Shown: positions 35,912 to 62,876, counted from the stretch's first letter. The stretch: 64,000 nucleotides of DNA from an uncultured delta proteobacterium (GCA_963737905.1 CAVTUQ010000043.1:1-64000), one strand, 5' to 3'. Notes: generated by a model not told the origin, from the letters alone. Translations and numbers: made by a program.

Positions 35912-36006
35912 GCCATGGTCATAGATCTCTCTCGCATTTATCGGCGGTAATGCTAACGAGGGATAGGTAACCTGATACAAGGCTTTTATTATTATCATTT
36001 AAAAAA

Positions 36007-37920: not shown

Positions 37921-37979
37921 AATTTCACGTTTTTCTTTGACGGACGCGATTATCAGCTGTGCTCTAAAGCTGCGAGCAG

Positions 37980-40858: not shown

Positions 40859-40872
40859 GAGCGTTACGACTC

Positions 40873-41757
40873 TTATCCTTTTCCTGGAAGAGCATGGCGC
40901 TCAGCACGTGAAAGCGACCCGCTTGTCCTCACATGACGCCGGCCGACCAACCCGCAGATGAGATTCAGCACGTAGCGGTGGCTGAACTGCAACACGTCAA
41001 TTTTTGAAACGCCACCCTTGCGGCGATACTCGTGCGAGGGCAGCTCGATCACGCGGTAGCCCTGCTTCAGACACTTCATGGCCATCTCTTGCTCGATGGT
41101 GGTGATATCGCTGGTCAGGCCGATTGTCCGTCCGACTTCGGTGCGGATCGCTCGGAAGCCGTTTTGATAGTCAGTTAGCCGCACTCCGTAACGATAGTTG
41201 ATGGAGAGGGAGATCATGAGACTCCCCATCAAACGAACGACCTCTCGAATCGAGCCAAACAATTCTTCGCTGCCACCCAGCATCCGAGAAGCCATCACCA
41301 GGTCGGCCTCGCCGGCGACGATGGGTGCCACGAGCGCCGGGATATCTTTCGGCTCGTGGGATCCATCCGCATCGATCAAAACGGTGATCGGATAGCGGGC
41401 TCGGGCAAGGCCGACTCGAACCGCATCTCCTTTGCCTCGACCGTTGTCCTGGACTACACGGGCACCGCACCGCCGGGCGATTGCGACAGTCTCATCCGAT
41501 GAGTGTCCATCGACCACGATGAGGTCATCGGTCATGTGACGCACGACCTCGAGCAGTTCGCCGATGGTCTCTTCCTCATTTCGGGCTGGCACGACGATAC
41601 TGTAGGAGGATAGCGCTTGATCCTTGATGAGCTCGATGTTGCGAGGTGGAAAACTCGATTCGGGATTTTCTTTCACGGGTTTCCCCCTTAAAGCACTTTT
41701 GACATGTTCAATCAAGTCCGCCAGAATTGGCAGGGGTCGTCCAACGGGATCCGACAT
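40873..41757 (-). CDS. GT2 glycosyltransferase, DPM1-like polyprenyl-phosphate sugar synthase
   Basis: SIVVPARNEE, VVDGHSSDET, GKGDA, IDADGSH, TDYQNGFRA, RKGGVSK. Start uncertain. Confidence 0.85.
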   Translation of the reverse strand: MSDPVGRPLPILADLIEHVKSALRGKPVKENPESSFPPRNIELIKDQALSSYSIVVPARNEEETIGELLEVVRHMTDDLIVVDGHSSDETVAIARRCGARVVQDNGRGKGDAVRVGLARARYPITVLIDADGSHEPKDIPALVAPIVAGEADLVMASRMLGGSEELFGSIREVVRLMGSLMISLSINYRYGVRLTDYQNGFRAIRTEVGRTIGLTSDITTIEQEMAMKCLKQGYRVIELPSHEYRRKGGVSKIDVLQFSHRYVLNLICGLVGRRHVRTSGSLSRAERHALPGKG

Positions 41758-41768
41758 GACAATGACAC

Positions 41769-41915
41769 GGCCATTGGACTCAATCCATCCTTGAGTGGAA
41801 CGTATTTGAATTTGGGAGTCGCGCTGGCGCGGCAAGCTCGGATCGAGAGGCTGTTGATCTGCAGAGTCTCGCCCAGTTGCTGTCTTTGCAAGGCAAAAAA
41901 AAGGAGGCGATGCAG
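41769..41915 (+). pseudogene. Degenerate remnant of the TPR C-terminus of gene 33849-35911
   Basis: AIGLNPSLSGTYLNLGVALARQARIE versus AIELNPSISRAHLNLGVALAKQGRIE; QSLAQLLSLQGKKKEA versus QSLAQLLLLQGKKEEA. Confidence 0.7.
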
Positions 41916-41989
41916 AGGCCCTTAGGTTCACGAGAAACGGGGCGCCGCGATAAGTCCTCCGTGAGCATGGCCGGGTCGCAGGAACTCGA

Positions 41990-43982: not shown

Positions 43983-44026
43983 TCAATGAGACATCGGCTG
44001 TCCTGCAGAGCTGAGCCGCGTCCATG

Positions 44027-46546
44027 CTACCGGTTTCTTATCGAGCCTGCTTTCTTGGAAGATTTAATTGGTTTGGGCTGGACCAGACTTTTGGGTTGGA
44101 CCAGACTCTTGGATTGGACCAAAGCTAAGGAGATAGGAATGAGCAGGAAATAGCATAGTGCTCCGATAATCAGAGTCGCCGTAATTCCCAGCGCGAGGCT
44201 AATTGCAATGGCACTGATGGAGGCGAGCACGCCCGCTGCGCCGTTGATCCCCCAGAACCAAGGCGTGGGTCTGGAATCGATCGAGGCGATGAGCCGCATG
44301 CCTGTAGGGAAACCAAACCCAAGTAAAAGCCCGGCCGGCGTGATGGACAACACGCATATCACAATCCGGACGGGTAGCGTGGCGTCATTGAAAGCTGCAA
44401 ATAGGTTACCCAAGGCAAACGGCAAGATCATCAAGTAGCCGCCTGTTAAGATGGCCCAAGTTGTAATCTTAACCCGGTTATCAAGTGTCAAATTTTCTGA
44501 GAGGAAACTGCCCATACCTGTTGTTAGTATTAGGCTGAAGAGAAGAACGGCCAGGGAATAGATGGGATGGCCAAGGAATACGGTCATGCGTTGGAGTAAC
44601 CCGATTTCGACCATCATAAAACCGATACCGATCAACGCAAAGTACAGTGTCCCCCGAGTCGCTACCGCACGGCCAACGTCTTTAAGCGCCGGACGCAGCG
44701 GTACAATGATTGCTGCCATGACGAATATCAACGAGATAAAAAACAAAACAAGCAATGTGATCGTGGCCACCAAATTTCCTTGCCTTACGCCGCCCCCCTG
44801 GGGGCCCCTTGCGAGCATAGTTTTCGCGTGAGCGAGCGCCTGGAACGGGCGGGAAAGAGGCAATTGATTGAAAAAAAACGGCCGGTCATCTGTGGGGGGC
44901 GTCAGGTCAAACTCAAGGCTTGATGTATAACTGTCGAGTGATTTTCGATCAACGGCGGTTATTATCCGGAGACAACGTGTCGGAACCAGGCACACGGCGA
45001 GGACTCAGCAATACGCTATGCTGATATTCCGCCGCTGCTGTCTCCAGGTTTTCGACGTCGCTCGCGGAGAAAGGCGATTTAGACAAGACCAGAGTAGCGA
45101 CCGTACCCTGCGAAGCGAGAAACACATGGCGGCTGGGATCGGCGATCCCCATCTCCATTAGCGTTGCCACAGCTAAACTGATCAGTCTTCCGGTTTCATC
45201 GGGAACTGAAGGGTCGTACCACCGGCTGACGGTCAAAACACCTCTCGGCGTCAATCGATTGAGAAAAATCTTCCAGGCTTCGACCGTATAGAGGCCGTTT
45301 TCGCTCAGGGTAAAAGCCCCAGCCCCCGTTGCAGCCCAGGTGTCAACCAAGCTCATCTGGATGAGGTCGAAAGACTCCTGGCTTCGGGCGAGCCAGCTTC
45401 TTCCCTCATCCAGTACAAAGTTAACTCCCGGCAACGCGGCCACGTTGTTGAAATCGAGAAAGTCGGGCTCTCGAGTCAAGAGCTGAACGAAAATAGGATT
45501 GATCTCCACGCCGGTAATTTTCTTCCGGCCGAAAAGAGCCGCGGATAAAATGTCTCGCCCGGCACCGACGCCAATCACAAGGACCCGCTCGCGATCGGGG
45601 AGAAAATAGGCAAGATTCGTGACGTCATATCTGTAGAAACGCTACCTCATCCAAATTGCCGGTAAAGCGATAGGCATAGGTGGCTGCGTCGCCGTCGATG
45701 TTTAAGATCGTTTGATAAACAGACCATTTATTGTCAAACATCTTAGGCGATGGACCCCACATTTCCGGTATGCCTCGTTTCACCTGCTCCACAACGACCC
45801 GCGAGAAGGAGTTCCATTGCTTGAATAGATGCGATCCCGGAAATTCGAATTTACCCTTTACGGCTATAGGCTGGAGACCATGGTCTGTGTGGGGATTAAT
45901 CAGAGCGCATAGGACGAGGACGGAAAGAATCCAGTAATGATGCTGCAGGCACGAATGCAGCGGTGGCTTTTGATCCGGTGCTTTACCAATGCCGGAACCA
46001 GAAAAAGCCAGCGCCGCTGCCGCCATCAAAGGCTGCGACCCACAAAACGGCCGAGGGACCATCGGTGAAATTTAGAAGCAATAGCGCCCCTAGGCAACCG
46101 ATGGCCGCACCTAATAAATCGACTCCGTAAACCCGTGGCCAACCGGAAAAGGACTGCGGGTTAGCGCGAGACTCACCACCACGCCGGAGAAGAAAAATGG
46201 GATGGACAAACAGATGGCAAGCTCAGTCCATATCCAGAGTGTCGTCATTGCCCCGCTAATGACGGGCGCTAGTGTCATTTGCACGGCTAGACAAATCGCA
46301 GCGGCGAAGGCAAATAGCCCGCTAAAATAGGACAGGTCATAGGATAAAGTCTTTTCCGTGAATCGGTCACGGCGCAAGTAAACCCAAACGGCCCCGACCG
46401 TCAAGCCAAACATAGCTAGGCTAATCACGAAAAATGCCAAGTGATACCAGACCACGACGGAAAGAATACGTGTCTGGATGATCTCCAGCATTAAGGTGGA
46501 AGAGCTAATAAGGAACACACCGAGATAGAAAAAAAGTGGTCGTCAT
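44027..46546 (-). CDS. Membrane-bound SAM-dependent transferase (spermidine synthase-like domain flanked by TM domains), several frameshifts
   Basis: Colinear ORFs: LEIIQTRILSVVVWYHLAFFVIS; WNSFSRV, IDGDAAT; VIGVGAGRD, GVEINP, DEGRS, DLIQMSLVDTWAA; PTDDRPFFF, LGHPIYSL, WFWGINGAAGV. Confidence 0.75.
44071..44124 (-). repeat. 18-bp tandem repeat x3 encoding LVQSKS-LVQPKS-LVQPKP
   Basis: ggtttgggctggaccaga cttttgggttggaccaga ctcttggattggaccaaa. Confidence 0.8.
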
Positions 46547-46681
46547 TACGGTTTCTGGGCTAAACCCGTTGGTGGTTTACCATTGAGGGATACACCCAAA
46601 CAAACCGATATCAAGATTGCATTTGTTTGGGAAGCAGGATATCGATGAAGCGAAGACGGAGGAATTCCCGTTAGAGCAAAA

Positions 46682-48397
46682 ATGACCAATCGAGCGACGG
46701 TGAGGCGCCGCCAGCGCAAAAGGCAAAACTCTGTAAGAGCAGCCGATGCAGGGCGAACCGTCATGGGACGCCCTATCGTGCTTATAGTCCTTGGCGGCCT
46801 ACTGGTGGCGGGGGTCATTACCCGTATCCATTTACTCGATAGAAGCTTGTGGCTGGACGAAGCCTGGGTGGCCAACTCGATCCGCGCTCCAACCCTACAC
46901 CAAGCGCTCTATTACGATGATTGGTTGCAGACGACCCCACCACTTTTTATCGCACTCAGCCGCCTCATCACGGTTCTTATTGGGACGTCGAATGTCGCTT
47001 TTCGAGCGCTCCCCGCGCTGTCCGGAATCGTCTCCGTGCTTGTTTTTTCCTTTATTGCTTTAAGACTCTTAAAACCCAGTTTCGCGATGATCGCGATCTT
47101 GTTGTTTGTTTTTAGCCCGCGAGTGATCCTCTATAGCCAGTCAGTCAAGCAATACAGTACGGATGTGCTTTCCACGACCAGCCTGCTGGTGCTCGGATAC
47201 CTTTATATCGAGAAGCGCGACGATCGCTCGTTCTACTTGTTATTGGCAACTTTTGCTGTGCTTAGCTTTCTTTCCTATCCTGCGATGCTGTTTTTACCCT
47301 TTCTCCTTTACGCCGCTACGACCGGAGTTGATTTGCAGTCGAGACCTAAGGACACCCAAGCGGCAATTCGTCCGAAGTGGCTCCGGGTTTTCGTGGTGGT
47401 CGCGCTCGCAGTTCTTGTACCCGTGACCAACTACTTATTTTTTATTGCACCGAATAAGACTTCGGCGCTGACTGAGTTTTTTCCGGAGGGTTTTTATCAG
47501 GGGCACACTCTAGCTGAGTTTTTGGAGTTCTATGGGACCCGGCTTCTGACCCTGACGGGGATGTTTTTCTTCGGGGGTCCGGGCGTTTTACGCTTTGTTA
47601 CGGTATGCATCACAGTTATCGGGTTCATTCATTTGTGGGTGTCTCAAACAAAGTGGCCGCACCCCGAAACCTTCCAGACGGCTGTTCTGTTGACGGCGCC
47701 GATTGCGGGGGTCGTCGGTCTGAATATGCTCGGATTTTTTCCCTTGCCGGGTTTCCACCACCGGCTCTTGCTCTTTGTATTTCCGATTACCACCTTGGCG
47801 TCTTGCCTCGGATTGCAGTTTCTTGCAAATCTGACTTCGGGCTTCCTAACGTCTCGATTGGCAAACGTTAAAGCGACATCGGTGGAAAACGTCCTTGGAT
47901 CTGTTCTCTTTGTCGGGCTGCTTGGTTTAGTATTGCTGTTCTTTAGTACCTTCGGTATGAAGCCCTTTTTTGCGGAAGAATACGAAGACAGTGAGGAAGC
48001 TATTGCTTATCTTGCGCAACGGGTTCAGGCGAACGACGTCCTCTATATTTATGCGGCTATGCGAGAACAATTCAAGCTATACGGTAGAACACTGCCACCC
48101 GCGACAAACATTTTTTATGGAAAGATTGGTACGCCCTGTTGTCCCCGAAAGAATTATCGCAGTCCCAAGCAAGAATCCGCAGGCGATGTTATCCGCGAGG
48201 TCTCGGCGTTAAGTGACGCGGCAGCGGGGCGATCCCTATGGCTTTTAGTTACAGATCGTCCTCTTCACTGGCTTTATCTACAGCGTAACGATATTGAAAT
48301 ACTTGACCGCGGTCTCGCAAATAAAGGTTGCGAAAAGACCGAAGAAGCAAAATTCGCGGGGGTTTACATCGGTCACTTCAGATGCAAGCCGAAATAG
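46682..48397 (+). CDS. GT-C (GT39/PMT_2-like) glycosyltransferase
   Basis: RSLWLDEAW acidic motif, TPPLF, AFRALP, YSQSVKQYS, many TM segments. Confidence 0.82.
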   Translation: MTNRATVRRRQRKRQNSVRAADAGRTVMGRPIVLIVLGGLLVAGVITRIHLLDRSLWLDEAWVANSIRAPTLHQALYYDDWLQTTPPLFIALSRLITVLIGTSNVAFRALPALSGIVSVLVFSFIALRLLKPSFAMIAILLFVFSPRVILYSQSVKQYSTDVLSTTSLLVLGYLYIEKRDDRSFYLLLATFAVLSFLSYPAMLFLPFLLYAATTGVDLQSRPKDTQAAIRPKWLRVFVVVALAVLVPVTNYLFFIAPNKTSALTEFFPEGFYQGHTLAEFLEFYGTRLLTLTGMFFFGGPGVLRFVTVCITVIGFIHLWVSQTKWPHPETFQTAVLLTAPIAGVVGLNMLGFFPLPGFHHRLLLFVFPITTLASCLGLQFLANLTSGFLTSRLANVKATSVENVLGSVLFVGLLGLVLLFFSTFGMKPFFAEEYEDSEEAIAYLAQRVQANDVLYIYAAMREQFKLYGRTLPPATNIFYGKIGTPCCPRKNYRSPKQESAGDVIREVSALSDAAAGRSLWLLVTDRPLHWLYLQRNDIEILDRGLANKGCEKTEEAKFAGVYIGHFRCKPK

Positions 48398-48453
48398 AGA
48401 AGCCCGCGTCACGATGAAGGGCGATCGCTGTTGTTGCTGAAGTTGGCTGGTGG

Positions 48454-49197
48454 GTGCCACAGGTGGATCTTGACCTCTCTGTTATAATCCCGGCGTATAA
48501 CGAGGCTGAAAGGATTATTCCGACGCTGCAGCGAATCAACGATTATCTCAGGGGTAGCTCTTTCAGCTCCGAAATACTGGTTGTTCTGGACGGACCAACG
48601 GATAACACGCTTGGCGTATTGCGGGAAGTCTCGGAAAAAGTTCCAAATCTGAGGATCTTGGAGCGACATCGAAATCGTGGCAAAGGCTACACGGTTAGAG
48701 AAGGGATGTTGAAGGCCTCTGGGCGATTGCGGCTTTTTTGCGATGCGGACAATTCCACGGATATCGCCCATTTCGACAACATGATACCGCTTTTCGAAGA
48801 AGGCTATGAGATCGTCATTGCGTCGCGCCATTCCAAAGACGCTGCCGGAGCACAACAGACCATTTCGCAACCGAGATACAAGCGGATCATCGGACAATTG
48901 GGCAATATCGTTGTCCAGTCCGTTGCCGTACGTGGAATTTGGGATACACAGTGCGGCTTTAAAGCTTTTCGCGCGGAAGCGGCGAAGCGGATATTCTCTC
49001 AAACTGTGATTGATGGGTGGGGCTTCGATATCGAGGTCTTCGCGCTGGCGCGCGTCTTAAATTACAAGATTGGTATTATTCCCGCCCATTGGGTAAACGA
49101 TCCAAGAAGTCATGTTCGATCCATCGACTATTTACGAGTTTTCGGTGATACGCTTCGCGTGCGGATCCGGCTAATGGCCCGCAAATACAATGTCTAA
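48454..49197 (+). CDS. GT2 dolichyl-phosphate beta-glucosyltransferase-like (ALG5-like) polyprenyl-P-sugar synthase
   Basis: LSVIIPAYNEAERI, NRGKGYTVREGM, FCDADNST, IWDTQCGFKAF, GWGFDIE. Confidence 0.88.
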   Translation: MPQVDLDLSVIIPAYNEAERIIPTLQRINDYLRGSSFSSEILVVLDGPTDNTLGVLREVSEKVPNLRILERHRNRGKGYTVREGMLKASGRLRLFCDADNSTDIAHFDNMIPLFEEGYEIVIASRHSKDAAGAQQTISQPRYKRIIGQLGNIVVQSVAVRGIWDTQCGFKAFRAEAAKRIFSQTVIDGWGFDIEVFALARVLNYKIGIIPAHWVNDPRSHVRSIDYLRVFGDTLRVRIRLMARKYNV

Positions 49198-49343
49198 GGA
49201 AATCTAAAGGGTCAAGAGTTCAGGCTTTTACATTATGGTTTCAAATGCGCTATGTTCCGGACTGATCTTTTTCTTTTTGCTGCTTTGTTTTTAAACAATC
49301 GGCAGAACTGTGACTTCCACTCATAAGCTTTTTCACTCCTGCA

Positions 49344-51428
49344 ATGGTAAGTAGGGCCAGGCCGATAAGATTAGTGACAAAGGCCAGGAAAAGCTCGGCG
49401 GCAGCGGAGGTGCGAAAACTAGCGGCTCAAAAGTCGCCAAGCAACACAACTATATCCCTTCGAGTTCTGGTATCGATTGCACTGGGAATTGGCCTGACTT
49501 TTATAGTGGTCGTTCTCGGCACGATTAGGGAGCTGTCGCCCACCTTCGACGAGCCGGTTCATGTCCTCGCGGGTTACTCCTATCTCAAGTGGAAAGATTA
49601 CAGGGTTAATCCGGAGCATCCGCCATTGGCAAAGGCTCTGGCGGCGCTACCGTTGCTTGCCTTGGATATTAAGGACCCGCGCCCCGGGAACTCAGACTGG
49701 GACCGCATTCCGAAGCAGCAACCTGGAATTCCAACGGTTAAATTCGCGCGCGAACTGCTGTTTGTTCACAACGATGGCGCAAAGCTTTTCCAGTACGCGA
49801 AGCTGCCCTTTGTGATTCTTACCGTAGTTCTTGGACTGTTTGTTTTTCTCTGGAGCTTACAATGGTTTGGCCCAGTCGCAGCGGTCGCCTCCCTCATGCT
49901 TTTCGCCACCGATCCCAATATCATCGCTCACAGCACGCTCGTTCACACCGACATGCCTTTCACCGCGTTCTTTTTCATCGGCACCTATTTTTTTCAACGC
50001 GCGCTTTCTAGGCGGCGTTGGCCGGACGGGCTACTGACGTGTGTTCTTTTTTCCTTGGCAGCGATCACAAAATTTTCTTCCGCTGGGATTATGGCGAGCT
50101 GGAGCCTTGCGGGTTTAGTTTGGCTCCTTCAGCCTGCTTCATCGCACGATTCTCAGTCAGGCAATGCCGCTACTCGAAGTCGCAAGCTGCTCGTGGTTTC
50201 GGGAATACTACTCGGAAGTCTGCTCGGTGCGTATTTATTCACCTGGGCGGCCTACGGTTTTCGATTTGCGGCGATACCCGGAACTGAAGCGTCATTTTCC
50301 ATGGCGCCGGTTATGCCGGAAACCACGCCTTTGCTTGTGCAGAAAGCGGTCTCTTTTTTAACTCGGTTTCATCTACTGCCCGAGGCGTGGATCTATGGCG
50401 AGCTTCATACTCTCACGTTTCTTAGACGCACAGCCTTTCTGTTAGGCGAGTTCTCCGAAGAAGGTTTTTGGCTTTACTTTCCGGTTGCTTTCCTGGCAAA
50501 GACACCGCTTCCTACTCTTATATTGGTCCTTCTCTCTATCGCCGGCTTGCTGACTCGCCGGTACGACCACGAGAGACCGATCTTTACTCTTTGGGCTCCG
50601 GTGTTGGTTTATTTTTCCATCGCGGTTTGGGCCCGAATGAATATCGGCATACGTCACATCCTTCCCGTCTATCCGTTCCTATTCGTGTTGGCTGGTGGGA
50701 GCGCCGCCGCGCTTTGGAACAGCCGCATCGCATGGAAGCGAGGTTGTCTTGCATTAATCGGCGGGTGGGCTCTTTGGGGCTCCCTCGCCACCTATCCCAA
50801 TTATATCGAGTATTTCAACGAGGCTGCCGGCGGTCCGAAGAACGGCCACAATATTTTGTTGGACTCCAACTTGGATTGGGGGCAAAACTTAAAGAGTTTG
50901 AAGTCCTGGATGGACGAACACGGCGTGAAGAGTATCTTGCTTCTTTATTTCGGCCAGGCCGAGCCGGCCTCCTATGGGATCGACGCGATTCACATTCCGG
51001 GAAGTCTCGTTCGGCCGAGGACGTCAAAGCGCTCAGATTCGAGCATTCCGTACGTTCTCGCCGTTAGCGCAAATCACTTCTATGCAGGCCAAGTTTACTC
51101 CACGACAGCGGAAGCCGACTTTATCCGATCATTTCGGCTGAAAGAACCGGTGGCAACCATCGGCCATTCGATCCTGGTCTTCAAGCTCGACCCGTCCGAT
51201 CCCCAGACTAACTATACACTCGGAACCATTATGGCACTGCGTGGTGAAGTTTCCCTAGCCGAGGAACTGTTTCGTAAAGTCCTGGTGGTGCTCCCTTCGT
51301 CTGCAAGGGTTCACGAAGCGTTGGCCCAGGTCCTTGCCTTGCAGGAAAAACTCACCGAAGCCGAGTATCACTACAAGCAGGCAATAGCGATCTATCGTTC
51401 CCGGCCCACCCATCCGGATTCACGATAG
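49344..51428 (+). CDS. GT-C (GT39/ArnT-like) glycosyltransferase with C-terminal TPRs
   Basis: PTFDEPVH, NPEHPPLAK, PNIIAHS, KTP, NIGIRHILP, YFNEAAGG, DSNLDWGQ, two TPR-like repeats. Confidence 0.85.
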   Translation: MVSRARPIRLVTKARKSSAAAEVRKLAAQKSPSNTTISLRVLVSIALGIGLTFIVVVLGTIRELSPTFDEPVHVLAGYSYLKWKDYRVNPEHPPLAKALAALPLLALDIKDPRPGNSDWDRIPKQQPGIPTVKFARELLFVHNDGAKLFQYAKLPFVILTVVLGLFVFLWSLQWFGPVAAVASLMLFATDPNIIAHSTLVHTDMPFTAFFFIGTYFFQRALSRRRWPDGLLTCVLFSLAAITKFSSAGIMASWSLAGLVWLLQPASSHDSQSGNAATRSRKLLVVSGILLGSLLGAYLFTWAAYGFRFAAIPGTEASFSMAPVMPETTPLLVQKAVSFLTRFHLLPEAWIYGELHTLTFLRRTAFLLGEFSEEGFWLYFPVAFLAKTPLPTLILVLLSIAGLLTRRYDHERPIFTLWAPVLVYFSIAVWARMNIGIRHILPVYPFLFVLAGGSAAALWNSRIAWKRGCLALIGGWALWGSLATYPNYIEYFNEAAGGPKNGHNILLDSNLDWGQNLKSLKSWMDEHGVKSILLLYFGQAEPASYGIDAIHIPGSLVRPRTSKRSDSSIPYVLAVSANHFYAGQVYSTTAEADFIRSFRLKEPVATIGHSILVFKLDPSDPQTNYTLGTIMALRGEVSLAEELFRKVLVVLPSSARVHEALAQVLALQEKLTEAEYHYKQAIAIYRSRPTHPDSR

Positions 51429-51453: not shown

Positions 51454-52200
51454 TCAGAGGTAATGGAGCGTGGCTTTTCCAGACGACAGGCTTGTCTCCG
51501 CTTCATTGATCCGGCTCGCCGTTCCAACATCTTGCCAGAAACCGTCGAAGCGAAAGCCGAAGAGCCTTTCTTGCTGCAGCAGCATCCGAGGATAGGTGTC
51601 CTTGGTTGTGCTGAACTTTCGAACGCCGTCATCTGACTCCATGTAGTCGAAGACCCGCGGCTCCAAGATCTGAACGCCCGTGAACATGAGCTTCGTGGTG
51701 GGACCAGAAACTACGGTGGAGATTCGTGCCTGGAGGAATCGATGGATTCTTCCATCGCTGTCGATTTCCATCGAGCCGTACTGGTCCGCCAAAGGATCCG
51801 GCCGCAGAACCAATGTGGCGGCAGCTCCCTTTTCTTCGTGGAAGGCAATGAGTTCGCTGAGCGATAGATCGATCAGCACATCGGTATTGATCACGATAAA
51901 GGTGCCGTCCTGAAGAAATGGTCTGGCTTTGAGCAGACCTCCGCCCGTATCCAATAGCTCGGGTTCTTTAGAATAAGTGATTTGCAATCCCAATTGCTTG
52001 CCATCGCCAAGATACTTTTCAATCTGGTCGCCCAGATGATGTAGGTTGATGACAATGTCACGAATGCCGTAGCGTTTAAGGAGCAGTAGGGAATAATCAA
52101 TCATCGGCCTGCCGGCCACCGGCACCAGGGCCTTGGGTGTCCGCTGGGTGAGGGGATGGAGTCGTGTTCCCTGGCCGGCCGCGAGCACCATCGCCTTCAT
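51454..52200 (-). CDS. Nucleotidyltransferase, MurU-like
   Basis: MVLAAGQGTRLHPLT..PKALVPVAG, LLDTGGG, INTD, WQDVGT; directly downstream of the AmgK-like kinase. Confidence 0.82.
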   Translation of the reverse strand: MKAMVLAAGQGTRLHPLTQRTPKALVPVAGRPMIDYSLLLLKRYGIRDIVINLHHLGDQIEKYLGDGKQLGLQITYSKEPELLDTGGGLLKARPFLQDGTFIVINTDVLIDLSLSELIAFHEEKGAAATLVLRPDPLADQYGSMEIDSDGRIHRFLQARISTVVSGPTTKLMFTGVQILEPRVFDYMESDDGVRKFSTTKDTYPRMLLQQERLFGFRFDGFWQDVGTASRINEAETSLSSGKATLHYL

Positions 52201-53274
52201 CGCATTTCCTCGTAGTGCTCCGCCAGCATCGGAATGAGCCTTTCCGTCTGCGGCAGGCGGCCGAAATTTTGCTTCAATCGCCGCAGGGTCGGCGGAATGA
52301 ATCTTTTATAGATAGTTTTCCCTTTGACGACGTCCAGATAGTAAAAGCGCCCCACCACCTTCAGGTCCCTTTGAATCGCGGAGAGCAAATACATCTCGGT
52401 AAATTCGTCTCGGTTGATGGGTTGCTTTTCCCAATCGGTTCTTCTGTCCACGTAGTAACCCACCAGTTTTTCTTCAAGGTCCGGCCGAATGATGCTGTCG
52501 GTAATGCGATCGTTAAGAAGCGAGGCAAGATCATACTGCGGCGGCGCCAGCAGGGCATCTTGGAAGTCGATCACGGCCACAGCTTCGTCGTGAATCATGA
52601 GGTTCCAGCTGTGATAATCGCGATGGCTCAAACAGGGAGGCAGGCTATCCAGGCGCCGGGCGATCTCGACGAAAACGCTTCTCAGCTCTTTCTTTGAAGT
52701 CTGGTTGATGTTGGGTTCCCGGCTGCTTTTCTAAACCGTACTCCAGGAAATGGTCAAACTCCCACATGTACAGACGAAAATCGAAGCGCTGTTGAAAGGC
52801 TACACAAGAGTCGTCGCGCTCTTTGGTTCCTCGGATTTGTAGTAGCAGCAGCTCGTCGATCGCTTTTTGGTACCATGACAAGACTTCCGATGGCGGCAGA
52901 CCTTGCACTCTGTCCCATAGAGCCAGATCGCCCAGGTCTTCCAAGAACAGAAGCCCTTCGTCCAGCGATGGGTCATAAAGTCTCGGCACGCTGACGCCGA
53001 TCCGACTCAGAAAGCGGTGTACGCTAAGAAAAGGCAACTCCTTGAGCGGTTCTTTGAAGACGGCCAACTCTTCGGAAGAAAGAGGTAAGACACTCCCACT
53101 GGGTAGTTTCATGATGATGACCGAGGACGGCGTGCCGGGGCCGGTGAGGTGAGCACGGTAATAGCGGCGGCTAGAGGCGTCTCCAGCCAGACCGGCAAAC
53201 GACGCAATGACGGTCTGCTCGTCAAAGAGCGCGCGCAGCTTTTCCGCAATGAGGTCTTTGAGTTGTTCGCTCAC
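52197..53274 (-). CDS. Aminoglycoside phosphotransferase family, AmgK-like anomeric sugar kinase; frameshifted near 52640-52710
   Basis: LAGDASSRRYYR, LEDLGD, HRDYHSWNLM, IDFQDA..PPQYDLASLL, QRDLKVVGRF. Confidence 0.82.
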
Positions 53275-53333
53275 CGGCGAGCCTCCTTTGGTTGCCGCTC
53301 CGTTGACTTGTTTGATAAGCGTAGGGTACCTAT

Positions 53334-53350
53334 TCACCGACCCCGTCGGC
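53334..53350 (-). promoter_or_regulatory. Candidate bacterial SECIS hairpin
   Basis: Minus-strand RNA GCCGAC-GGG-GUCGGU with a G-starting apical loop 18 nt after the UGA. Confidence 0.55.
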
Positions 53351-53353
53351 GGT

Positions 53354-53584
53354 TTAAACCTCTCAGCTACCGCCGAACCCGATTGTAACCTTGCCGGCTT
53401 CAACAATGACCGGTATCTGCCGGCGGCCGTTCGAATGCTTGAGCATCTGCTGTAGTTTGTCGTCGTCTTGGAGGACGTTGATGTATTCGAAGGGAATCTT
53501 CCGGCGGGAGAAATCCTCACGGGCTCTCGAAGTATAGGGGCAAAGATCATGACCAAAAATCAGCACTTTCTCGATCGACATCAT
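53354..53584 (-). CDS. UXX-star glutaredoxin-like selenoprotein (C-terminal ...GFGGS-Sec-E-V-stop)
   Basis: FGHDLCPYT, IPVIVE..KVTIGFGGS then TGA GAG GTT TAA; a hairpin follows the UGA. Confidence 0.8.
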
Positions 53585-53786: not shown

Positions 53787-54623
53787 ATGGCCGGCATTCT
53801 TTACATCGTTGCCACTCCCATCGGTAATCTCGAAGACATCACCTTGCGGGCGCTGCGAGTGCTTAAAGAGGTCGATGTGATCGCCGCCGAGGACACGCGT
53901 CACACGCAGATTCTTCTGAGTCATCACGACATTCATACGCCGCTAACCAGCTATCATGAGCACAACGAGAAAACCAAAGCCCGGGAGCTGGTTACACGGC
54001 TGGCACGGGGTCAGACTATTGCCCTGGTGTCTGATGCGGGTACGCCATCGATCTCCGACCCGGGCTTTCGATTAGTCGTACAAGCTATCCGTGCCGGGGT
54101 GCGGATCATTCCGATACCCGGTGCCTCAGCTCTGACCGCTGTTCTGAGCGCCAGCGGCTTGCCTACGGATAGATTCATCTTCGAGGGCTTTCTGCCAGCC
54201 AAGAAAAAGCAGAGGCGGGAAAGACTCCAGGCCCTGCGCAATGAAACCCGGACGTTGATCCTTTACGAAGCCCCGCATCGGCTGAAAGACGCTCTCGACG
54301 ACATTCACGAGTTGCTAGGAAATCGCGATGCGGTGCTGGCTCGAGAAGTGAGCAAGATCCATGAGGAGTTTCTGCGCGGGCCTATAGGCGAGCTGGTCCG
54401 CGCGCTCGGAGCCGGTGAGATTCGCGGAGAAGTGACGCTCATCGTCAGCGGCGGGGCAAGTGCATCCCGCGTTAACGAGGATCTGTTGAAAGCTGAAATT
54501 CGCGAGCTCGAAGGCAAGGGGTTGCGGGTTAAGGAAATCGCTGAGGTCTTGGGGGAAAAATTCGGTTACCCCAAAAAGGAAATTTATCGCTTAGCACTGC
54601 AGCGACAAAAGGTCAGCCCTTAA
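53787..54623 (+). CDS. rsmI: 16S rRNA (cytidine1402-2'-O)-methyltransferase
   Basis: LYIVATPIGNLEDITLRAL, AAEDTR, VSDAGTPSISDPG, YEAPHR, REVSKIHEE. Confidence 0.95.
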   Translation: MAGILYIVATPIGNLEDITLRALRVLKEVDVIAAEDTRHTQILLSHHDIHTPLTSYHEHNEKTKARELVTRLARGQTIALVSDAGTPSISDPGFRLVVQAIRAGVRIIPIPGASALTAVLSASGLPTDRFIFEGFLPAKKKQRRERLQALRNETRTLILYEAPHRLKDALDDIHELLGNRDAVLAREVSKIHEEFLRGPIGELVRALGAGEIRGEVTLIVSGGASASRVNEDLLKAEIRELEGKGLRVKEIAEVLGEKFGYPKKEIYRLALQRQKVSP

Positions 54624-56002
54624 ACTTGTACTCTTCCAGCTTGCGGTACAAGGTGGTTCGGTCCACACCCAGAGTTTTGGCAGCTTCGGTTTTGTTCCCA
54701 TGGACGGTTTCCATGACTCGCATGATATATTCTTTTTCCAAATCCCTGAGAGTGTAGGATTTTGCAAGCGCCTCGGCCACCGGGAGGACGTTGTCGTTGC
54801 GTGCGACCAGCGAAGGCGGCAAGGTCTTGCAAACCGATCCGCGGCTCTTTGCCGAGAAGTACCGCCCTTTCTATGGTGTGTTCCAGCTCTCTGACGTTTC
54901 CCGGCCAGTGATAGTTCGTGAGGGCACTAAGGGCTTCCGGCTCGATGCCATCCAGTTGCCGTTGAATCTGGCCGCTAAATTTTCGCATGAAGTGCTCGAT
55001 CAGAATTGGAATATCTTCCGCTCTCTCGCGCAGCGGCGGCAGATCAATTCGGATTACGTTGAGCCGGTAGTAGAGATCCTGCCGGAAGCGGCCTTCCTGA
55101 ACCAGACGCTCCGGATCGCGGTTACAAGCCGAAACCAACCGGGCGTCGATCTTCTCCCCGTGGTTTGCTCCCAAGGGTCTCACTTCTTTATCCTCGATCA
55201 CCCGCAGCAGTTTGGCCTGTAGATTGAGCGGAATCTCGCTGATTTCGTCGAGAAACAGGACGCCACCGTGAGCTGCGCTAAACAACCCGCGTCGATCCTT
55301 CCGGGCGTCGGTAAAAGCGCCGCGCACGTAACCGAAAAGTTCGCTCTCCAAAAGCGTCTCCGGGATCGCAGCGCAGTTGATAGGAATAAACGATTTTGTG
55401 GCCCGACCGCTGTGTTGATGAATCGCCCGGGCGATCATTTCCTTGCCGGTTCCGCTTTCCCCCACGATGAGGACGTTGACAGCAAGATCGCTTACGTGAG
55501 CGACGAGCTCAAAGGTTTCCCGCATCCTTGCGCTCTGACCGATGATATTTTCAAATCCATAGTGACTGTGGACTTGCTTGCGCAGCCTTTCAACTTCGCT
55601 CTGCAGGCTGCGTTGCTCTAGAGCGCGGCTGACCTGAAGCAGGATTTCATCTGTGTGAAACGGCTTGGTCACATAATGGAACGCGCCTGCGTGCATGGCT
55701 TCCACCGCGCTTTCGATACTGCCAAAGGCCGTGATCAAAAGAACCAAGGCATGAGCATCGATCTCTCTAAGCTGTTTCACCAGTTCCGTTCCCCTCATGC
55801 GCGGCATCATAAGGTCGGTAATGGTTAAATCAAAGCTATCCGCTCGGTATCTTTCCACCGCCGAGGCACCGTCGTGAACCGTTTCGACGACGTAGCCCTC
55901 CTCGCCCAATAAATCGGCAAGGAACTGACACATCTCGCGATCGTCATCAACGACGAGAATCTTGGCCGGGTTGGTGGTTTCCTGTTTGATTCCGGGAGTC
56001 AT
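54613..56002 (-). CDS. Sigma-54-dependent response regulator (NtrC/AtoC family); frameshift near 54825
   Basis: Receiver ILVVDDD..TDLMMP, GESGTGKE, ESELFG..GAFTDA, FLDEI, WPGNVREL; Fis HTH (AAKTLGVDRTTLYRKL) in ORF 54613-54822. Confidence 0.92.
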
Positions 56003-57536
56003 TGGAGGTCTCGCTGTGGTAGCTCGTTTGCTTCAGTTGTTCTGCAGGAAGGTAAATTATGAAGCGGGTGAAACGGCCGGGATCGCTTTCAACGTGAATA
56101 TCACCGCCATGCTCCTGGATGATACCGTAAGTCACGGACAAACCTAGGCCGGTGCCCTCACCGATGTCCTTGGTGGTGAAAAAGGGATCAAATACACGAC
56201 CGATATGCTCGGGGTCGATCCCGGTGCCGTTATCTTCGAATGAGATTCGCAGCCAACGACCGGGCGCAACCGAAGCCTTAGCCAGACCGCGATCGGTGAT
56301 CTTCACGCCGATCTTGATCAAGCCGCCCGGACCTAACGCCTGGAGCGAGTTCGAATAGAGATTGATAAACACTTGCTGGAGCAGATCGGGATCGGCATTG
56401 ATTTTAGGTAGGTTGTTGAAACCCTCTGTTTCAACTCGGATATCTTTCTCGCGGAGCTGGTGTGCCAAAAGATATTTCACGTTGTCCAGCAGAGCTTGTA
56501 GATCGACAGGCTTAAAAACCGGTTCTCTGCGCCGGGAAAACTCCAGGAGCTGGCGGACGATAGCTGCGATGCGGTCGCTCTGGGAGCGGATGACAGCCAG
56601 ATTATCCTTAAGCTCTTCGAGACTCCGGGGTCGACGCAAAAGATATTCGGATCGTCCGCCGATGATGTTGAGGGGCGTGCCGATTTCGTGCGCCAGACCT
56701 GCCGCTAGCCGTCCCACTGAGGCCAGCCGTTCAGTGTGACGGAGCTCCTGCTCGAGCCTGAGCTTCTCCTGTTGCTCCTCCAAGAGCCGGGCGTCACTCT
56801 CTTGTAGCTGACGGCACATGAGGTTAAATTCTCGAGCCAGCGAAGCGACTTCGTCATGGCCCTTTATTTCGATGCTTTGCTCCCGTTGGCCTTGAGCCAT
56901 CTCTTTAATGCGGTGAATCAGTTGGTTAATTGGCCGGGTTACGCTGCGGCGCACCAAAATCAGGACCAGAAGCGAGAGAAGAGCGACTAACACGGCCGCT
57001 GTCGCCAGAATTCGGTTGCGCCGCTGCTCAATGGTGGCGAAGGTTCCGTATCCCTGGCGAGCGAGCACGAATGCTCCCACAAGGTGATTGCTCGAGTCGA
57101 CAATCCCTTCTATTCGATAGTAGATCAAATTCCTGTGCTCCTGAATATAACCGTCGATTCCGTTGCCGCTCTGTAGAACGGGTCGGGGATCTAATTTTGT
57201 GATGGGAGTCGGATCCAGCTCTGGAAAATCCGTCCCATACCGCATCGAGGCCGAATGGGCCACGGGCTTTCCCGATAGATCGTAGACTATGACTCCGTGG
57301 ATATTGCCCCTCGGCGCCGCGGTGTCGATGAATTGCTGCACGGTACGGAGGTCCACCTTGTCGGCGAGTGTACGGCTCAACCCCGCCTGCAAAACCCGGG
57401 AGAAGCCACGCATCCCTATGCTTAGCTCTCGCTTAATACTTTCTTGATCCTGTTGAATGCTTAGGTAGCCGTGCACCGTCATGATCAGAATGATGACGGC
57501 GACCAGAGAAATGATGAGTTTGGTCCCAAGATTCAT
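55947..57536 (-). CDS. Sensor histidine kinase (2 TM, periplasmic domain, HAMP)
   Basis: LAHEIGTPL, QVFINLYSNS, DNGTGI, FDPFFTTK, GTGLGL. Confidence 0.93.
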   Translation of the reverse strand: MNLGTKLIISLVAVIILIMTVHGYLSIQQDQESIKRELSIGMRGFSRVLQAGLSRTLADKVDLRTVQQFIDTAAPRGNIHGVIVYDLSGKPVAHSASMRYGTDFPELDPTPITKLDPRPVLQSGNGIDGYIQEHRNLIYYRIEGIVDSSNHLVGAFVLARQGYGTFATIEQRRNRILATAAVLVALLSLLVLILVRRSVTRPINQLIHRIKEMAQGQREQSIEIKGHDEVASLAREFNLMCRQLQESDARLLEEQQEKLRLEQELRHTERLASVGRLAAGLAHEIGTPLNIIGGRSEYLLRRPRSLEELKDNLAVIRSQSDRIAAIVRQLLEFSRRREPVFKPVDLQALLDNVKYLLAHQLREKDIRVETEGFNNLPKINADPDLLQQVFINLYSNSLQALGPGGLIKIGVKITDRGLAKASVAPGRWLRISFEDNGTGIDPEHIGRVFDPFFTTKDIGEGTGLGLSVTYGIIQEHGGDIHVESDPGRFTRFIIYLPAEQLKQTSYHSETSNDSRNQTGNHQPGQDSRR

Positions 57537-57656
57537 TTAGATGTTTGGTCCATAAGCAGCAATCATCATACCGAGAATTGAGCGCAAAAAAACAATGCCA
57601 GATCGTTAAGAAATCAGCTCTATCCCAATGGGTATTGACTTAACCGACCGATGATT

Positions 57657-57693
57657 TGTTGCAATCTACTGCGCCGCGTGGCGATTTGCAACG
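57657..57693. promoter_or_regulatory. Candidate upstream activator (enhancer) sites for a sigma-54 activator
   Basis: tGTTGCAAtc...atTTGCAACg dyad about 150-190 bp upstream of the -24 box, followed by an AT-rich tract. Confidence 0.5.
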
Positions 57694-57844
57694 CGAATAA
57701 AAACACGCAAATTTAATAAGTTAGCCTTAACTGAAGGCTTAGGGCTACAAAAGATCCGAGTTGCCGTGTGAGGCGCCGAAGGGGAGATCGGTGAGAAGTC
57801 TTAGAATTCCCAGATGATTTTAGTTTTGAGCTGGCGATAATTGA

Positions 57845-57859
57845 TGGCACACAGCTTGC
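57845..57859 (+). promoter_or_regulatory. Sigma-54 (-24/-12) promoter
   Basis: TGGCAC-acagc-TTGC matches the TGGCAC-N5-TTGC consensus exactly. Confidence 0.85.
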
Positions 57860-57911
57860 GGTATAGCCATTCATTAGTTCAATGGAATTCAGTGAAAGGA
57901 GGTGAAAAAAA

Positions 57912-58037
57912 ATGAAAAAGTTCGCAATTGCATTGGCCATCGTTTTGGGTCTCGTTAGCTCAATCGTTAGCCTATCCGCCCCGGTAAGTTATGCGCAGGA
58001 GGAGCCGGAGCCGAAGCCAGACAAGCCAGGTGATTAA
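57912..58037 (+). CDS. 41-aa secreted peptide precursor MKKFAIALAIVLGLVSSIVSLSAPVSYA|QEEPEPKPDKPGD
   Basis: RBS aaggaggtg, classical Sec signal peptide, sigma-54 promoter upstream and hairpin downstream; too short for the ORF track. Confidence 0.75.
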   Translation: MKKFAIALAIVLGLVSSIVSLSAPVSYAQEEPEPKPDKPGD

Positions 58038-58064
58038 GGATCGACCAGGCGCACTATCCCTCAT

Positions 58065-58101
58065 AGATAAGGGGATGATACATCCCCTTATCTATATTTT
58101 T
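58065..58101 (+). terminator. Hairpin terminator between the peptide gene and the convergent acylphosphatase gene
   Basis: agataaggggatg-ata-catccccttatct followed by atattttt. Confidence 0.75.
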
Positions 58102-58145
58102 GTCCGGAGCATATCGAAACGCACAAAGTAGGTCGATAACCGAGG

Positions 58146-58436
58146 TTAACGCTTTACAAAAAAAGTTTGAAATTCTCCCCTTGAAGCTTCCCACTCTGTG
58201 CTAACGTCTTTGACCTGTGCTCCCGGTGGTCCGCTCCGGCACCAGCGGATCAGCTTTTCCAGTTCTTCTCTTTCTCCTTCGGCAACGACCTCTACGGAGC
58301 TATCGGGACAGTTCATCACCCACCCGGTTACACCCAGCCGTCGGGCTTGCTCCACCGTTGATGCGCGGAAGTAGACCCCCTGGACCCTGCCGTTGATCTT
58401 TAAATGGACACGCACTGGGTCTTTCATCGCCGCCAT
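58146..58436 (-). CDS. acyP: Acylphosphatase
   Basis: GRVQGVYFR, GVTGWVMN, VEVVAEG, GPPGAQV. Confidence 0.92.
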   Translation of the reverse strand: MAAMKDPVRVHLKINGRVQGVYFRASTVEQARRLGVTGWVMNCPDSSVEVVAEGEREELEKLIRWCRSGPPGAQVKDVSTEWEASRGEFQTFFVKR

Positions 58437-58499
58437 TTTTGCTCGGCTGTTCTCATATCTTACCTACCCAACCACCGCAACTGTTCATACCGAATAGAT

Positions 58500-58529
58500 T
58501 TGACAACCGGCCCACTCCTTAGATAGTCT
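58500..58529 (+). promoter_or_regulatory. Candidate sigma-70 promoter for the RRM gene
   Basis: TTGACA at 58500, 18-bp spacer, TAGTCT. Confidence 0.45.
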
Positions 58530-61039: not shown

Positions 61040-61130
61040 TCACAAAAAACTTAGCATAAGTCGAACATCGAATGAAGTTCGAGCGAAGCTACATTGACCG
61101 TCTCGGGTGAGTATGTTAACCCTTTCACTG

Positions 61131-62876
61131 ATGGGTAAACGTTCTAGGTGGAGGGTTGCTTTACTCCTGATTCTATCAGGTTGTGCCTCCGCTATGCCCG
61201 AAGTCAAAACGCCCCCCGAAGCCCCCGTTTGGACCCCCGAGGCGCCATTCGCGAGTGACGCAAAGATCGAGATTCCCCCCGAAGCAGCCGGCTTGTTTCA
61301 CTTCCTCAAGGGGCAGTTGTTGCTGGGACAAGGTGAATTCGATGAGGCGTTAAAGGAATTTGAAGCCGCGGCGCAAGCCAACCCGGGTGACTCCTTTTTG
61401 CATTTTCGCTTGGCTACTCTTTACCTCAGAAAAGGAGATCTCAAAAAGGCTGTAGCGGAAGCGGAAATAGCCGTTCGCACGGATCCCAAAGGTGTCGACA
61501 ATCATCTCCTTCTTGCCGGCCTGTACTCTTCTCTCGGAGAAAACCAGAAAGGCATCATTGAATACACCGAAGTTCTTAAACTGGATCCCAAGAACCAAGA
61601 GGCGATGCTCTATCTGGGAGCGCTTTATCTGCAGCTTGAAGACTACGAACGGGCGAACAAAAATCTTGAAGAACTCCTGAAACTGGAGCCGAATTCCGTC
61701 CTTGGACACTATTATCTCGGCCGCGTGCGCGCGAAAAGCAAGCTGTACCTGGCGGCCGAGCAAAGTTATCGAAAAGCTCTGGAGTTGAACCCGAAGTCTG
61801 AAGCGGTGCTGATGGATCTCGCCCTGGTGTACGAACTCGAAGGCAAGACCGAAGAAGCTATCCAAACCTATCAACGCTTGTTGCAAGTTAATCCAAAAAG
61901 CGTCTGGTCGCGGAAACGGTTGGGCGAGCTGTACGTCGGCCAGAATAAGCTAGACGAAGCTCTAAGCCAATTTCAAAGGCTCGAGAGTGCCGAAGTAGAC
62001 CCGCGGGAAACCCGCATCAAGATTGGCCTGATCTACTATGAAAAAGGCGACTTCGAACGCGCTGCGACGGAATTTAATCTTGTGCTGGCGGGTGACGCGG
62101 AGAACGACCGGGCCCACTACTACCTCGGCGCGACCTACGCAGAAATGAAGTCCGACGACAAAGCTCTGGAGGAGTTTTTGCGGGTGCCGGAGAAGAGCGA
62201 GTTGTTTGTCGATGCGCGCGTCCAGGCGGCTTATCTCTATGACCGGCGGGATCAAACCCAAAAGGCCATCGAAGCGGTGCAGTCGGCGCTCCAAAAAAAG
62301 AATGATCAAAAAGAAATTTTCGGTTTACTCGCCTCGCTCTATCGAAAGCAAAAAGACTACCCCAAGGCGATCGAAGCCATGGAGCGCGTGATTGTGTTGG
62401 ATTCCAGGAACGACCAGGCGCACTTCCAGCTTGGCGCTCTCTATGACGAAAATAAGAACAAAGAGAAATCCATCGCCAACATGAAAAAAGCCATCGAGCT
62501 CAATCCCCAGAACGCGGCGGCGTTGAATTATCTCGGCTACACCTGGGCCGAGATGGGAATGCATCTCGAAGAAGCAGAAATCTTGATCCAGCGGGCGCTG
62601 AAGATCGAGCCCAACGACGGGTTCTATATCGACAGTCTGGGCTGGGTTTATTACCAGAAGGGGGATTACAATCAAGCCGTAGAGCTTCTCGAACGGGCCG
62701 TGGAGATCACAGTGGACGATCCCACCATCATCGAACATCTCGCCGACGCCTACGAAAAGGCCGGCAAAACGGACCGGGCGCTCGCCCGTTACCGCGAGGC
62801 GCTTAAGAAATCGAAGGAAGACGGGCAAGTCAAGCGCATCCGGGAAAAAATCCAGCGTGTGGAGAGAAAAATTTGA
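61131..62876 (+). CDS. Long TPR lipoprotein
   Basis: Lipobox LSGC, many TPRs, ALNYLGYTWAE, YIDSLGWVYY, IIEHLAD. Confidence 0.88.
   Translation: MGKRSRWRVALLLILSGCASAMPEVKTPPEAPVWTPEAPFASDAKIEIPPEAAGLFHFLKGQLLLGQGEFDEALKEFEAAAQANPGDSFLHFRLATLYLRKGDLKKAVAEAEIAVRTDPKGVDNHLLLAGLYSSLGENQKGIIEYTEVLKLDPKNQEAMLYLGALYLQLEDYERANKNLEELLKLEPNSVLGHYYLGRVRAKSKLYLAAEQSYRKALELNPKSEAVLMDLALVYELEGKTEEAIQTYQRLLQVNPKSVWSRKRLGELYVGQNKLDEALSQFQRLESAEVDPRETRIKIGLIYYEKGDFERAATEFNLVLAGDAENDRAHYYLGATYAEMKSDDKALEEFLRVPEKSELFVDARVQAAYLYDRRDQTQKAIEAVQSALQKKNDQKEIFGLLASLYRKQKDYPKAIEAMERVIVLDSRNDQAHFQLGALYDENKNKEKSIANMKKAIELNPQNAAALNYLGYTWAEMGMHLEEAEILIQRALKIEPNDGFYIDSLGWVYYQKGDYNQAVELLERAVEITVDDPTIIEHLADAYEKAGKTDRALARYREALKKSKEDGQVKRIREKIQRVERKI

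Follow-up and report, generated by a model that had tools for sequence, protein, structure and literature searches.

The 64,000-nucleotide (nt) stretch of DNA analysed here, which is from an uncultured delta proteobacterium (GCA_963737905.1 CAVTUQ010000043.1:1-64000) and is referred to below as the window, carries at 54613-58101 a conserved, recurrent three-gene module of uncultured Candidatus Binatia, in which the genes for a sensor histidine kinase and an NtrC-type sigma-54 activator, both on the minus strand, are divergent from a 41-codon open reading frame (ORF) on the plus strand. Sequence comparison indicates that this small ORF is a genuine and conserved gene, coding for a proline-rich peptide with a Sec-type export signal, and its regulatory linkage to the two-component system is well supported, albeit indirectly. 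By analogy with ZraP-ZraS, CpxP-CpxA and MgrB-PhoQ, we tentatively favour, at rather less than even confidence, a role for the peptide as a periplasmic accessory or feedback element of its own kinase and not as a cell-to-cell signal. The parts of the locus named in a preliminary description were all found where it had placed them or close by, and those of the peptide gene are as follows.

57845-57859, plus strand: sigma-54 promoter, -24/-12 box TGGCACACAGCTTGC (TGGCAC-N5-TTGC; exact match, conserved in relatives)
57895-57905, plus strand: ribosome-binding site AAAGGAGGTGA (GGAGG), 6 nt ahead of the ATG at 57912
57912-58037, plus strand: 41-codon ORF, ATG at 57912 and TAA at 58035-58037 (ORF call)
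57912-57995, plus strand: predicted signal peptide, 28 codons (MKK, hydrophobic core and PVSYA; -3/-1 rule and family conservation)
57996-58037, plus strand: predicted mature peptide QEEPEPKPDKPGD, 13 codons and the TAA (ORF call and family alignment)
58063-58102, plus strand: predicted intrinsic terminator with a 15-bp stem (58063-58095), a 3-nt loop and a T-run (ATTTTTG)

The leader of the 41-amino acid (aa) product consists of MKK, a hydrophobic core of 16-17 residues and P-V-S-Y-A|Q (grand average of hydropathy, 1.57), and by rule is a Sec signal peptide cut by signal peptidase I, with a basic n-region, a hydrophobic h-region and small residues at -3 and -1. Its division into two-thirds signal peptide and a 13-aa proline-rich charged remainder, already proposed in the preliminary description, is upheld by these rules together with family conservation (28 + 13 aa), and the predicted mature peptide QEEPEPKPDKPGD has a mass of 1465.5 Da and an isoelectric point of 4.3. 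The product has no match in Pfam or NCBIfam and no usable one in the Protein Atlas. A word-based search returned 42 relatives of 41-71 aa, mostly 76-98% identical, the named ones among them carrying the labels Candidatus Binatia or 'Deltaproteobacteria'. When 1.84 billion cluster representatives were searched with a profile, 39 matched at E<=1e-3, 35 of them new. The family thus has at least 78 members including the window copy (77 relatives), in about 39 clusters at 50% identity, nearly all of 40-50 aa; homologues are already called as 'hypothetical protein' by JGI and NCBI. Since the same short length and stop recur in independent contigs, the ORF is not a longer gene truncated by error, which had been named beforehand as one way in which the proposal could fail.

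The predicted cleavage junction, A|[Q/D/P][E/D], is kept in 76 of the 78 members, and 73 have tails of at most 30 aa; among these short members, S-x-A occupies -3/-1 in 64 and Gln is found at +1 in 68. The suggested cyclisation of an N-terminal Gln to pyroglutamate is possible but not universal, at least three of the 73 having Asp at this position. The tails of the short members are made almost wholly of P, E, K, D, Q, G, A and S and lack Cys, His and Trp; their mean proline content is 0.31 and, in 64 of 73, the net charge is -2 or -3. Tail length is 13 aa in 36 of the 76 members with a recognisable site and ranges from 12 to 27 aa, and its variation fits the addition of whole X-Pro units (e.g. 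QESPAPEPKPEPKPEPEPEPKPEKPGE). There are a few exceptions: P0029 has Thr at -1, P0316 has a 46-aa acidic tail, P0042 is acidic but not proline-rich, and P0038, P0285 and P0315 have tails that apparently result from frameshift or read-through. In 34 divergent representatives, mean pairwise identity is highest at mature positions +1 to +6 (Q-E-x-P-x-P, 0.66), compared with 0.40 and 0.23 in the hydrophobic core and 0.41 in the c-region. Because the start of the mature part is the best conserved block in divergent members, selection acts on the exported peptide and not on the leader alone, and the conserved head suggests specific recognition.

These data also bear on whether the leader is cut at all. 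The precursor could instead be a small membrane protein whose hydrophobic N-terminus is not cut off, holds it in the inner membrane and touches the kinase's transmembrane helices, in the way of MgrB with PhoQ or PilA with PilS, and the high identity of the hydrophobic segment among close relatives (0.84) would suit such a role. The core nevertheless drifts in divergent members, 64 of the 73 short members retain a textbook S-x-A site accompanied by a helix-breaking Pro, and there is neither a Cys nor an MgrB or pilin motif, all of which makes this reading decidedly improbable. MgrB belongs to a sigma-70 regulon, is not adjacent to phoPQ, is membrane-anchored and needs periplasmic Cys residues, while its target PhoQ has a periplasmic sensor of PDC fold. 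It is described as a 47-aa membrane peptide that forms a feedback loop with PhoQ/PhoP (PMC2789325; bioRxiv 10.1101/438515). Among known systems it comes closest in product size (47 versus 41 aa), and its gene is induced by the two-component system, as that of the precursor studied here would be, but the peptide has a predicted cleavable leader and no Cys. Membership of the MgrB family was rejected, as there is no Pfam match, no Cys in the mature parts of the 73 short members and a predicted cleavage site.

PilS, the kinase partner of the sigma-54 activator PilR, is reported to sense directly PilA, the product of the gene that its system controls, and is described as having six transmembrane segments and no periplasmic sensor (PMC6058289). 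The logic is possibly similar here, although PilA, a type IV pilin, is made with a prepilin leader and the peptide with a Sec signal peptide. Prepilins carry a G|FTLIE-type motif; it is absent from the peptide sequence, and pilin membership was rejected.

The peptide gene appears to have a promoter of its own. A perfect TGGCAC-N5-TTGC box had been claimed at 57845, and an exact-match scan recovered it there (TGGCACACAGCTTGC), with GG at -24, GC at -12 and proper spacing upstream of a gene. It is the sole exact instance on both strands of the 64 kb; shuffled sequences had a mean of 0.12 matches and at least one match in 12 of 100, and uniqueness by itself is thus only weakly unlikely by chance. 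A search allowing three mismatches was uninformative, with 234 matches against 247 expected. The promoter call gains weight because the box lies 67 nt 5' of the ATG, in the 375-nt gap between the kinase and peptide genes (57537-57911), adjoins the only sigma-54 activator gene that Pfam scans found in the window, and is conserved in relatives. No sigma-70-type promoter was found in 57400-58500, and no IHF consensus within the intergenic region. Downstream of the box, the strong ribosome-binding site and the terminator hairpin that the preliminary description had reported flank the small ORF as claimed. As the next gene, for an acylphosphatase, is convergent and a terminator is present, the peptide is the sole product of this promoter within the window, which agrees with what had been proposed.

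Such a unit would yield a monocistronic transcript of about 230 nt, and its main function might conceivably be that of a sigma-54-dependent regulatory RNA, the ORF being secondary or incidental. Regulatory RNAs of this type are known, namely Qrr1, encoded next to luxO, and GlmY, and a short monocistronic transcript with a strong terminator and an adjacent activator gene is what such an RNA would have. We consider this very improbable. The fold of the transcript has a z-score of -2.7, which comes mostly from the terminator, and the transcript matches no Rfam family. The protein-level pattern, moreover, fits coding selection, with conservative substitutions, length changes consistent with whole X-Pro units and the same stop in nearly all 77 relatives, and the strong ribosome-binding site is conserved. 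Within 57400-58300, the only Rfam matches were two sub-threshold ones to snoRNA models at 57486-57537, where the kinase gene starts. One of them is to the archaeal C/D-box model sR35; with 27 bits where the gathering score is 60, it is taken as chance.

Conservation of the promoter in relatives was judged from over-extended gene calls, that is, by back-translation of protein entries and not from DNA. Because 26 of the 77 database entries start too far upstream, they include a translated 5' region, and 12 of the 15 calls that are extended by at least 19 aa back-translate to TGGCAY-N5-TTGC, with the box 55-70 nt 5' of the true ATG (window copy, 67 nt). By comparison, 0.79% of 20,000 random 24-aa segments of window ORFs are compatible with the box. 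'MAHALR' and 'M-x-G-T-x-F-A-L' are typical beginnings of the compatible extensions. Close relatives occur among the 12, which so do not represent 12 independent events, but they include the distant P0287 and P0295. The extended calls that do not fit are P0296, P0313 and P0314, of which P0313 begins 'LR', compatible with a call that starts from the TTG in the -12 element; the shorter P0003 is compatible with such a start too. The extended calls also read K-G-G-E, which is the translated GGAGG site. Conservation of both the sigma-54 box and the ribosome-binding site is thus supported by the protein entries. The approach has some general use, since over-extended gene calls in databases can expose conserved promoter boxes where the DNA is out of reach.

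Linkage of the three genes in relatives was assessed by comparing by hand the size of the longest contig of each protein cluster across the peptide, kinase and activator tables. Only the best 120 kinases and the best 120 activators were compared, so that most peptides had no possible match. Five peptide-kinase cluster pairs share longest contigs of 188638, 147640, 3300, 3413 and 4195 nt, one peptide-activator pair shares a longest contig of 4445 nt, and 19 kinase-activator pairs agree; the 188638-nt contig carries peptide, kinase and activator. The genes on the shared contigs of only 3-4 kb must be neighbours, given the size of these contigs. Taken together, these coincidences are suggestive of a peptide gene that travels with the kinase and activator genes.

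A related-locus search with the kinase alignment found only paralogues among the loci listed, the best with 35% identity; the peptide profile had no match among all the ORFs of 80 paralogous loci, and a scan of these loci for a sigma-54 box next to a small signal-peptide ORF found nothing comparable. In one of them (L002, a Binataceae metagenome-assembled genome, 4899-7482), a paralogous kinase, whose sensor is not alignable (E = 1.1), and an activator with a GAFTDA loop have as divergent neighbour a 297-aa ORF that resembles a lipoprotein and belongs to no Pfam family; a GG-N10-GC box was read by eye just upstream of it. A two-component system beside an exported product may thus be a layout that recurs with different products.

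The remaining features of the module are given below.

54613-58101: whole module, kinase and activator genes on the minus strand and peptide gene divergent on the plus strand
54613-56002, minus strand: NtrC-type sigma-54 activator in two frames, 54620-56002 and 54613-54822 (Pfam Response_reg, Sigma54_activat and AAA_lid_14; HTH_8 in the other frame)
55947-57536, minus strand: sensor histidine kinase, 529 aa (Pfam HAMP, HisKA and HATPase_c; AlphaFold2 models; Foldseek)
57558-57573, minus strand: candidate weak sigma-54-like box CGGTATGATGATTGCT (8 of 11 consensus positions, GG and GC kept; intergenic scan)
57658-57692, no strand: inverted repeat GTTGCAA-N21-TTGCAAC, candidate activator site, about 180-210 nt upstream of the expected transcription start

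Sigma-54 promoters cannot fire without an enhancer-binding protein, and since the adjacent, co-inherited activator is the obvious candidate for the box at 57845, kinase input would control peptide output. The dyad that the preliminary description had placed at 57657-57693 is present at 57658-57692, at a plausible enhancer distance, but is weaker than claimed; its arms are of 7 nt, and a repeat search with a minimum length of 8 did not return it. The second box, CGGTATGATGATTGCT, lies 22 nt 5' of the kinase ATG and is regarded as no better than chance; if genuine, it would put the promoters on both sides under sigma-54, as is the case in zraP-zraSR. The kinase and activator genes share 56 nt (55947-56002), and the lengths of both are kept among homologues, which suggests translational coupling.

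The leftward NtrC-type activator of the preliminary description has the receiver (REC), AAA+ and Fis-type helix-turn-helix domains expected of it, but the last of these is out of frame, which that description did not mention. Alignment of both frames to an intact 462-aa homologue (P0163) locates a 1-nt indel between 'GLQD' and 'PPSLVAR', near 54818-54826, and nearly all the activator homologues listed are intact, with 462 aa and HTH_8. Because two more genes in the window are split (an RND pump of the AcrB family in three ORFs, 14671-17879, and a TolC-like OEP in two, 11985-13350), the window looks indel-prone, and the frameshift is probably an assembly error and not the mark of a true pseudogene. 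A distinctive property of this activator is its sigma-54 contact loop, at residues ~227-232, which reads GAFTDA and not the canonical GAFTGA. GAFTDA is found in 111 of the 120 best-listed homologues and GSFTDA in four more, whereas of the 37 loop motifs found in paralogues in the fetched loci 21 are GAFTGA and three are GAFTDA. An activator homologue scores below the NCBIfam cut-offs of AtoC (462 versus 714), ZraR (392 versus 760) and the PEP-CTERM regulator TIGR02915 (367.5 versus 502.6). This last result, along with the lack of a C-terminal helix in the peptide, led to rejection of a PEP-CTERM/PrsK-PrsR reading.

The kinase is, as described earlier, a leftward histidine kinase with a periplasmic sensor, a claim now borne out by its Pfam domains and by the predicted fold of the sensor. 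It consists of a first transmembrane segment, a periplasmic domain of PAS/Cache (PDC) fold at about residues 28-172, a second transmembrane segment, HAMP, HisKA and HATPase. It scores below the NCBIfam cut-offs of AtoS (215 versus 646) and ZraS (190 versus 479), and its catalytic core is structurally near that of ZraS (9jfj, 33% identity). The sensor region has no sequence match in Pfam or in the PDB, and a Foldseek search with the whole kinase was swamped by the catalytic core, hence a separate model of the sensor alone. This AlphaFold model (44 sequences; pLDDT 86, pTM 0.81) has a long helix followed by a five-stranded antiparallel sheet, between the two transmembrane helices, as in PAS/Cache (PDC) sensors, and in the Protein Atlas a feature search had sCache_3_2 as lead (score 0.95). 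Foldseek found 18 PDB matches at E<=1e-3, the best being the extracellular PAS/Cache domain of WalK (TM-score 0.64-0.70; 8-11% sequence identity), then CitA, DcuS and KinD. The strands of the sensor carry invariant N, H, S, Y and R residues which, in comparison with known ligand pockets of this fold, are as would be expected of a pocket lining.

In WalK, control of the extracellular PAS/Cache domain is exerted by the accessory proteins YycH and YycI and not by a known small molecule; the top Foldseek match, 9a5d, is a WalK-YycH model. The differences are considerable, WalK being a protein of Firmicutes with an OmpR-type partner regulator and large membrane accessory proteins.

The sensor fold is also central to a second reading, which we regard as less than even but nearly as likely as the accessory or feedback role, namely that the kinase senses some periplasmic or envelope cue through a Cache-fold pocket and that the anionic, polyproline-type peptide is simply the output, a stand-alone envelope effector without feedback on the kinase. 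It might, for example, buffer cations, contribute to the charge or osmotic balance of the periplasm, or bind an envelope protein. This fold usually binds small molecules (as in CitA, DcuS and KinD among the matches), so that the kinase need not sense the peptide; in addition, a composition of almost only P, E, K, D and Q, the net negative charge noted above and the variable number of X-Pro units suit a bulk physicochemical role better than that of a lock-and-key ligand, and we take the E-P/K-P pattern to resemble the spacer of TonB. Conservation of the Q-E-x-P-x-P head in divergent members is, by contrast, more suggestive of specific recognition, and 13 residues would be very small for an effector.

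A third reading is that the peptide is a diffusible autoinducer: once cut, it would pass out of the cell, build up as cell density rises and be detected by the Cache-fold domain, which would close a positive loop. The wiring would be appropriate, since a kinase, an activator and a peptide with its own inducible promoter are the minimum for autoinduction, and the mature N-terminus is conserved. What makes this unlikely is the lack of pherotype-like diversification: no hypervariable sensor of the kind seen in peptide pherotype systems was apparent among 18 homologues, which are 69% identical to the window copy in the sensor, 74% in HATPase and 90% in HisKA, and the peptide is 76-98% identical in the close set, so that peptide and sensor are conserved to about the same degree as the catalytic domain. 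Genes for an exporter, for processing or for modification are not among the adjacent genes, and the leader is of plain Sec type. The window codes for a BamD-like lipoprotein, a TolC-like OEP, an RND pump and HlyD-type adaptors, and the host is therefore a diderm, in agreement with the preliminary description, so that a hydrophilic anionic peptide of 1.47 kDa would need a route across the outer membrane. The broader proposal that the 13-mer is both product and ligand of the sigma-54 system, in a ribosomal-peptide autoinduction loop that would operate in a diderm (Binatota) without a dedicated exporter or modification enzyme and be either quorum-sensing-like or confined to the periplasm, is given equally little credence.

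Peptide quorum sensing in Gram-positive bacteria (ComC/ComDE, Agr) resembles the module in that a ribosomal peptide gene lies beside the genes of the kinase and regulator that control it. Those systems have double-glycine or AgrB-processed leaders, dedicated exporters and peptide-receptor pairs that co-diversify fast, and none of these leader, exporter or co-diversification traits was seen at this locus or in this family. Membership of the double-glycine-leader class was rejected for the peptide.

The accessory or feedback role remains our preference because the best-studied small partners that are encoded next to a two-component system or in its regulon (ZraP, MgrB, PilA-PilS) act in this way. 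ZraP is a folded zinc-binding chaperone of ~140 aa, similar to CpxP and Spy, which are helical proteins of ~100-160 aa with LTxxQ motifs. The ZraP-ZraSR system (HydHG) of E. coli and Salmonella has the closest layout, with a kinase and an NtrC-type activator divergent from the sigma-54-dependent gene of a small Sec-exported periplasmic protein, and ZraR is described as driving divergent sigma-54 promoters for zraSR and for zraP (PMC4987338). ZraP is called a repressor of ZraSR in the title of a paper cited there (PMC4987338). The product of the present module differs in being 13 aa long, probably disordered, without His or Cys and without a Pfam match, and kinase and activator are far under the cut-offs for ZraS and ZraR (as given above), with a sensor of PAS/Cache fold. 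Membership of the ZraP/CpxP/Spy (LTxxQ) group was rejected, there being no Pfam or NCBIfam match and a mature part of 13 aa.

The following working of the module can be proposed. The kinase would phosphorylate the activator, which would bind the shared intergenic region and open the sigma-54 promoter at 57845, two steps suggested by the conserved promoter and by adjacency. The 41-aa precursor made from the resulting transcript would be exported by Sec and cut after SYA, as signal-peptide rules and family conservation predict, and cleavage would free into the periplasm a 13-aa acidic peptide rich in Pro, Glu and Lys that is probably extended. There, purely by analogy, it may act as an accessory or feedback element of the same kinase. 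A complex prediction with two copies of kinase residues 1-200 and the precursor scored 0.02 and was counted neither for nor against binding.

Several points weigh against such a role. The peptide contains neither hydrophobic nor aromatic side chains and seems disordered, unusual properties in a specific ligand, and it is in no common family with ZraP, CpxP and MgrB. The activator may have targets elsewhere in the genome, so that the peptide need not be its main output, and its gene in the window is frameshifted ahead of the DNA-binding domain, while the dyad proposed as its binding site is weak (7-nt arms). Finally, adjacency in relatives rests on coincidences of contig size and not on DNA, and about one chance coincidence is to be expected among the short contigs.

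The general layout of the module is known, and what is new is that the divergent sigma-54-driven, apparently exported partner is an unprecedentedly small proline-rich 13-mer with a family of its own in Binatia. A text search of the literature with four strings from the peptide family had one match, in an unrelated carboxysome paper. Keyword searches (sigma-54, small protein, kinase, signal peptide) found no description of such a module in the literature texts searched, supplementary files being outside their scope, and a paper on the sigma-54 regulome of D. vulgaris contained none of five terms on small proteins or export. Annotation usually overlooks small proteins that tune sensor kinases, and the known cases are a handful from enterobacteria. 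The present family, whose products are among the smallest exported ones that can be conceived of, is linked with a dedicated sigma-54 two-component system in a phylum that is uncultured and occurs worldwide. Feedback of the peptide on the kinase would extend the principle of ZraP, CpxP and MgrB to a 13-mer; sensing of the peptide as a signal would add a rare diderm example of signalling by an unmodified linear peptide. With just three genes and a single promoter, this small, self-contained system could be rebuilt in a laboratory host.

The neighbours of the module code for RsmI, the acylphosphatase, an RRM protein and LigA. There is no rpoN among the scanned ORFs of the window (the rest of the genome being outside the data), and the 15 window ORFs without assignment that were scanned matched no NCBIfam family at E<=1e-8. 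Elsewhere in the window, 3387-11264 and 27103-29578 hold genes for three UbiD-family decarboxylases, a UbiA prenyltransferase, a luciferase-like monooxygenase and a three-subunit molybdopterin dehydrogenase (CoxSML/xanthine dehydrogenase type). A large cluster at 31792-51425 and 61107-62873 combines TPR proteins, PMT_2-type and GT2 glycosyltransferases and many ORFs of no family, with no exosortase/PEP-CTERM family detected in it. At 51454-53556, upstream of the module, a nucleotidyltransferase and a phosphotransferase-like ORF look by eye like a MurU/AmgK pair, presumably of cell-wall recycling.

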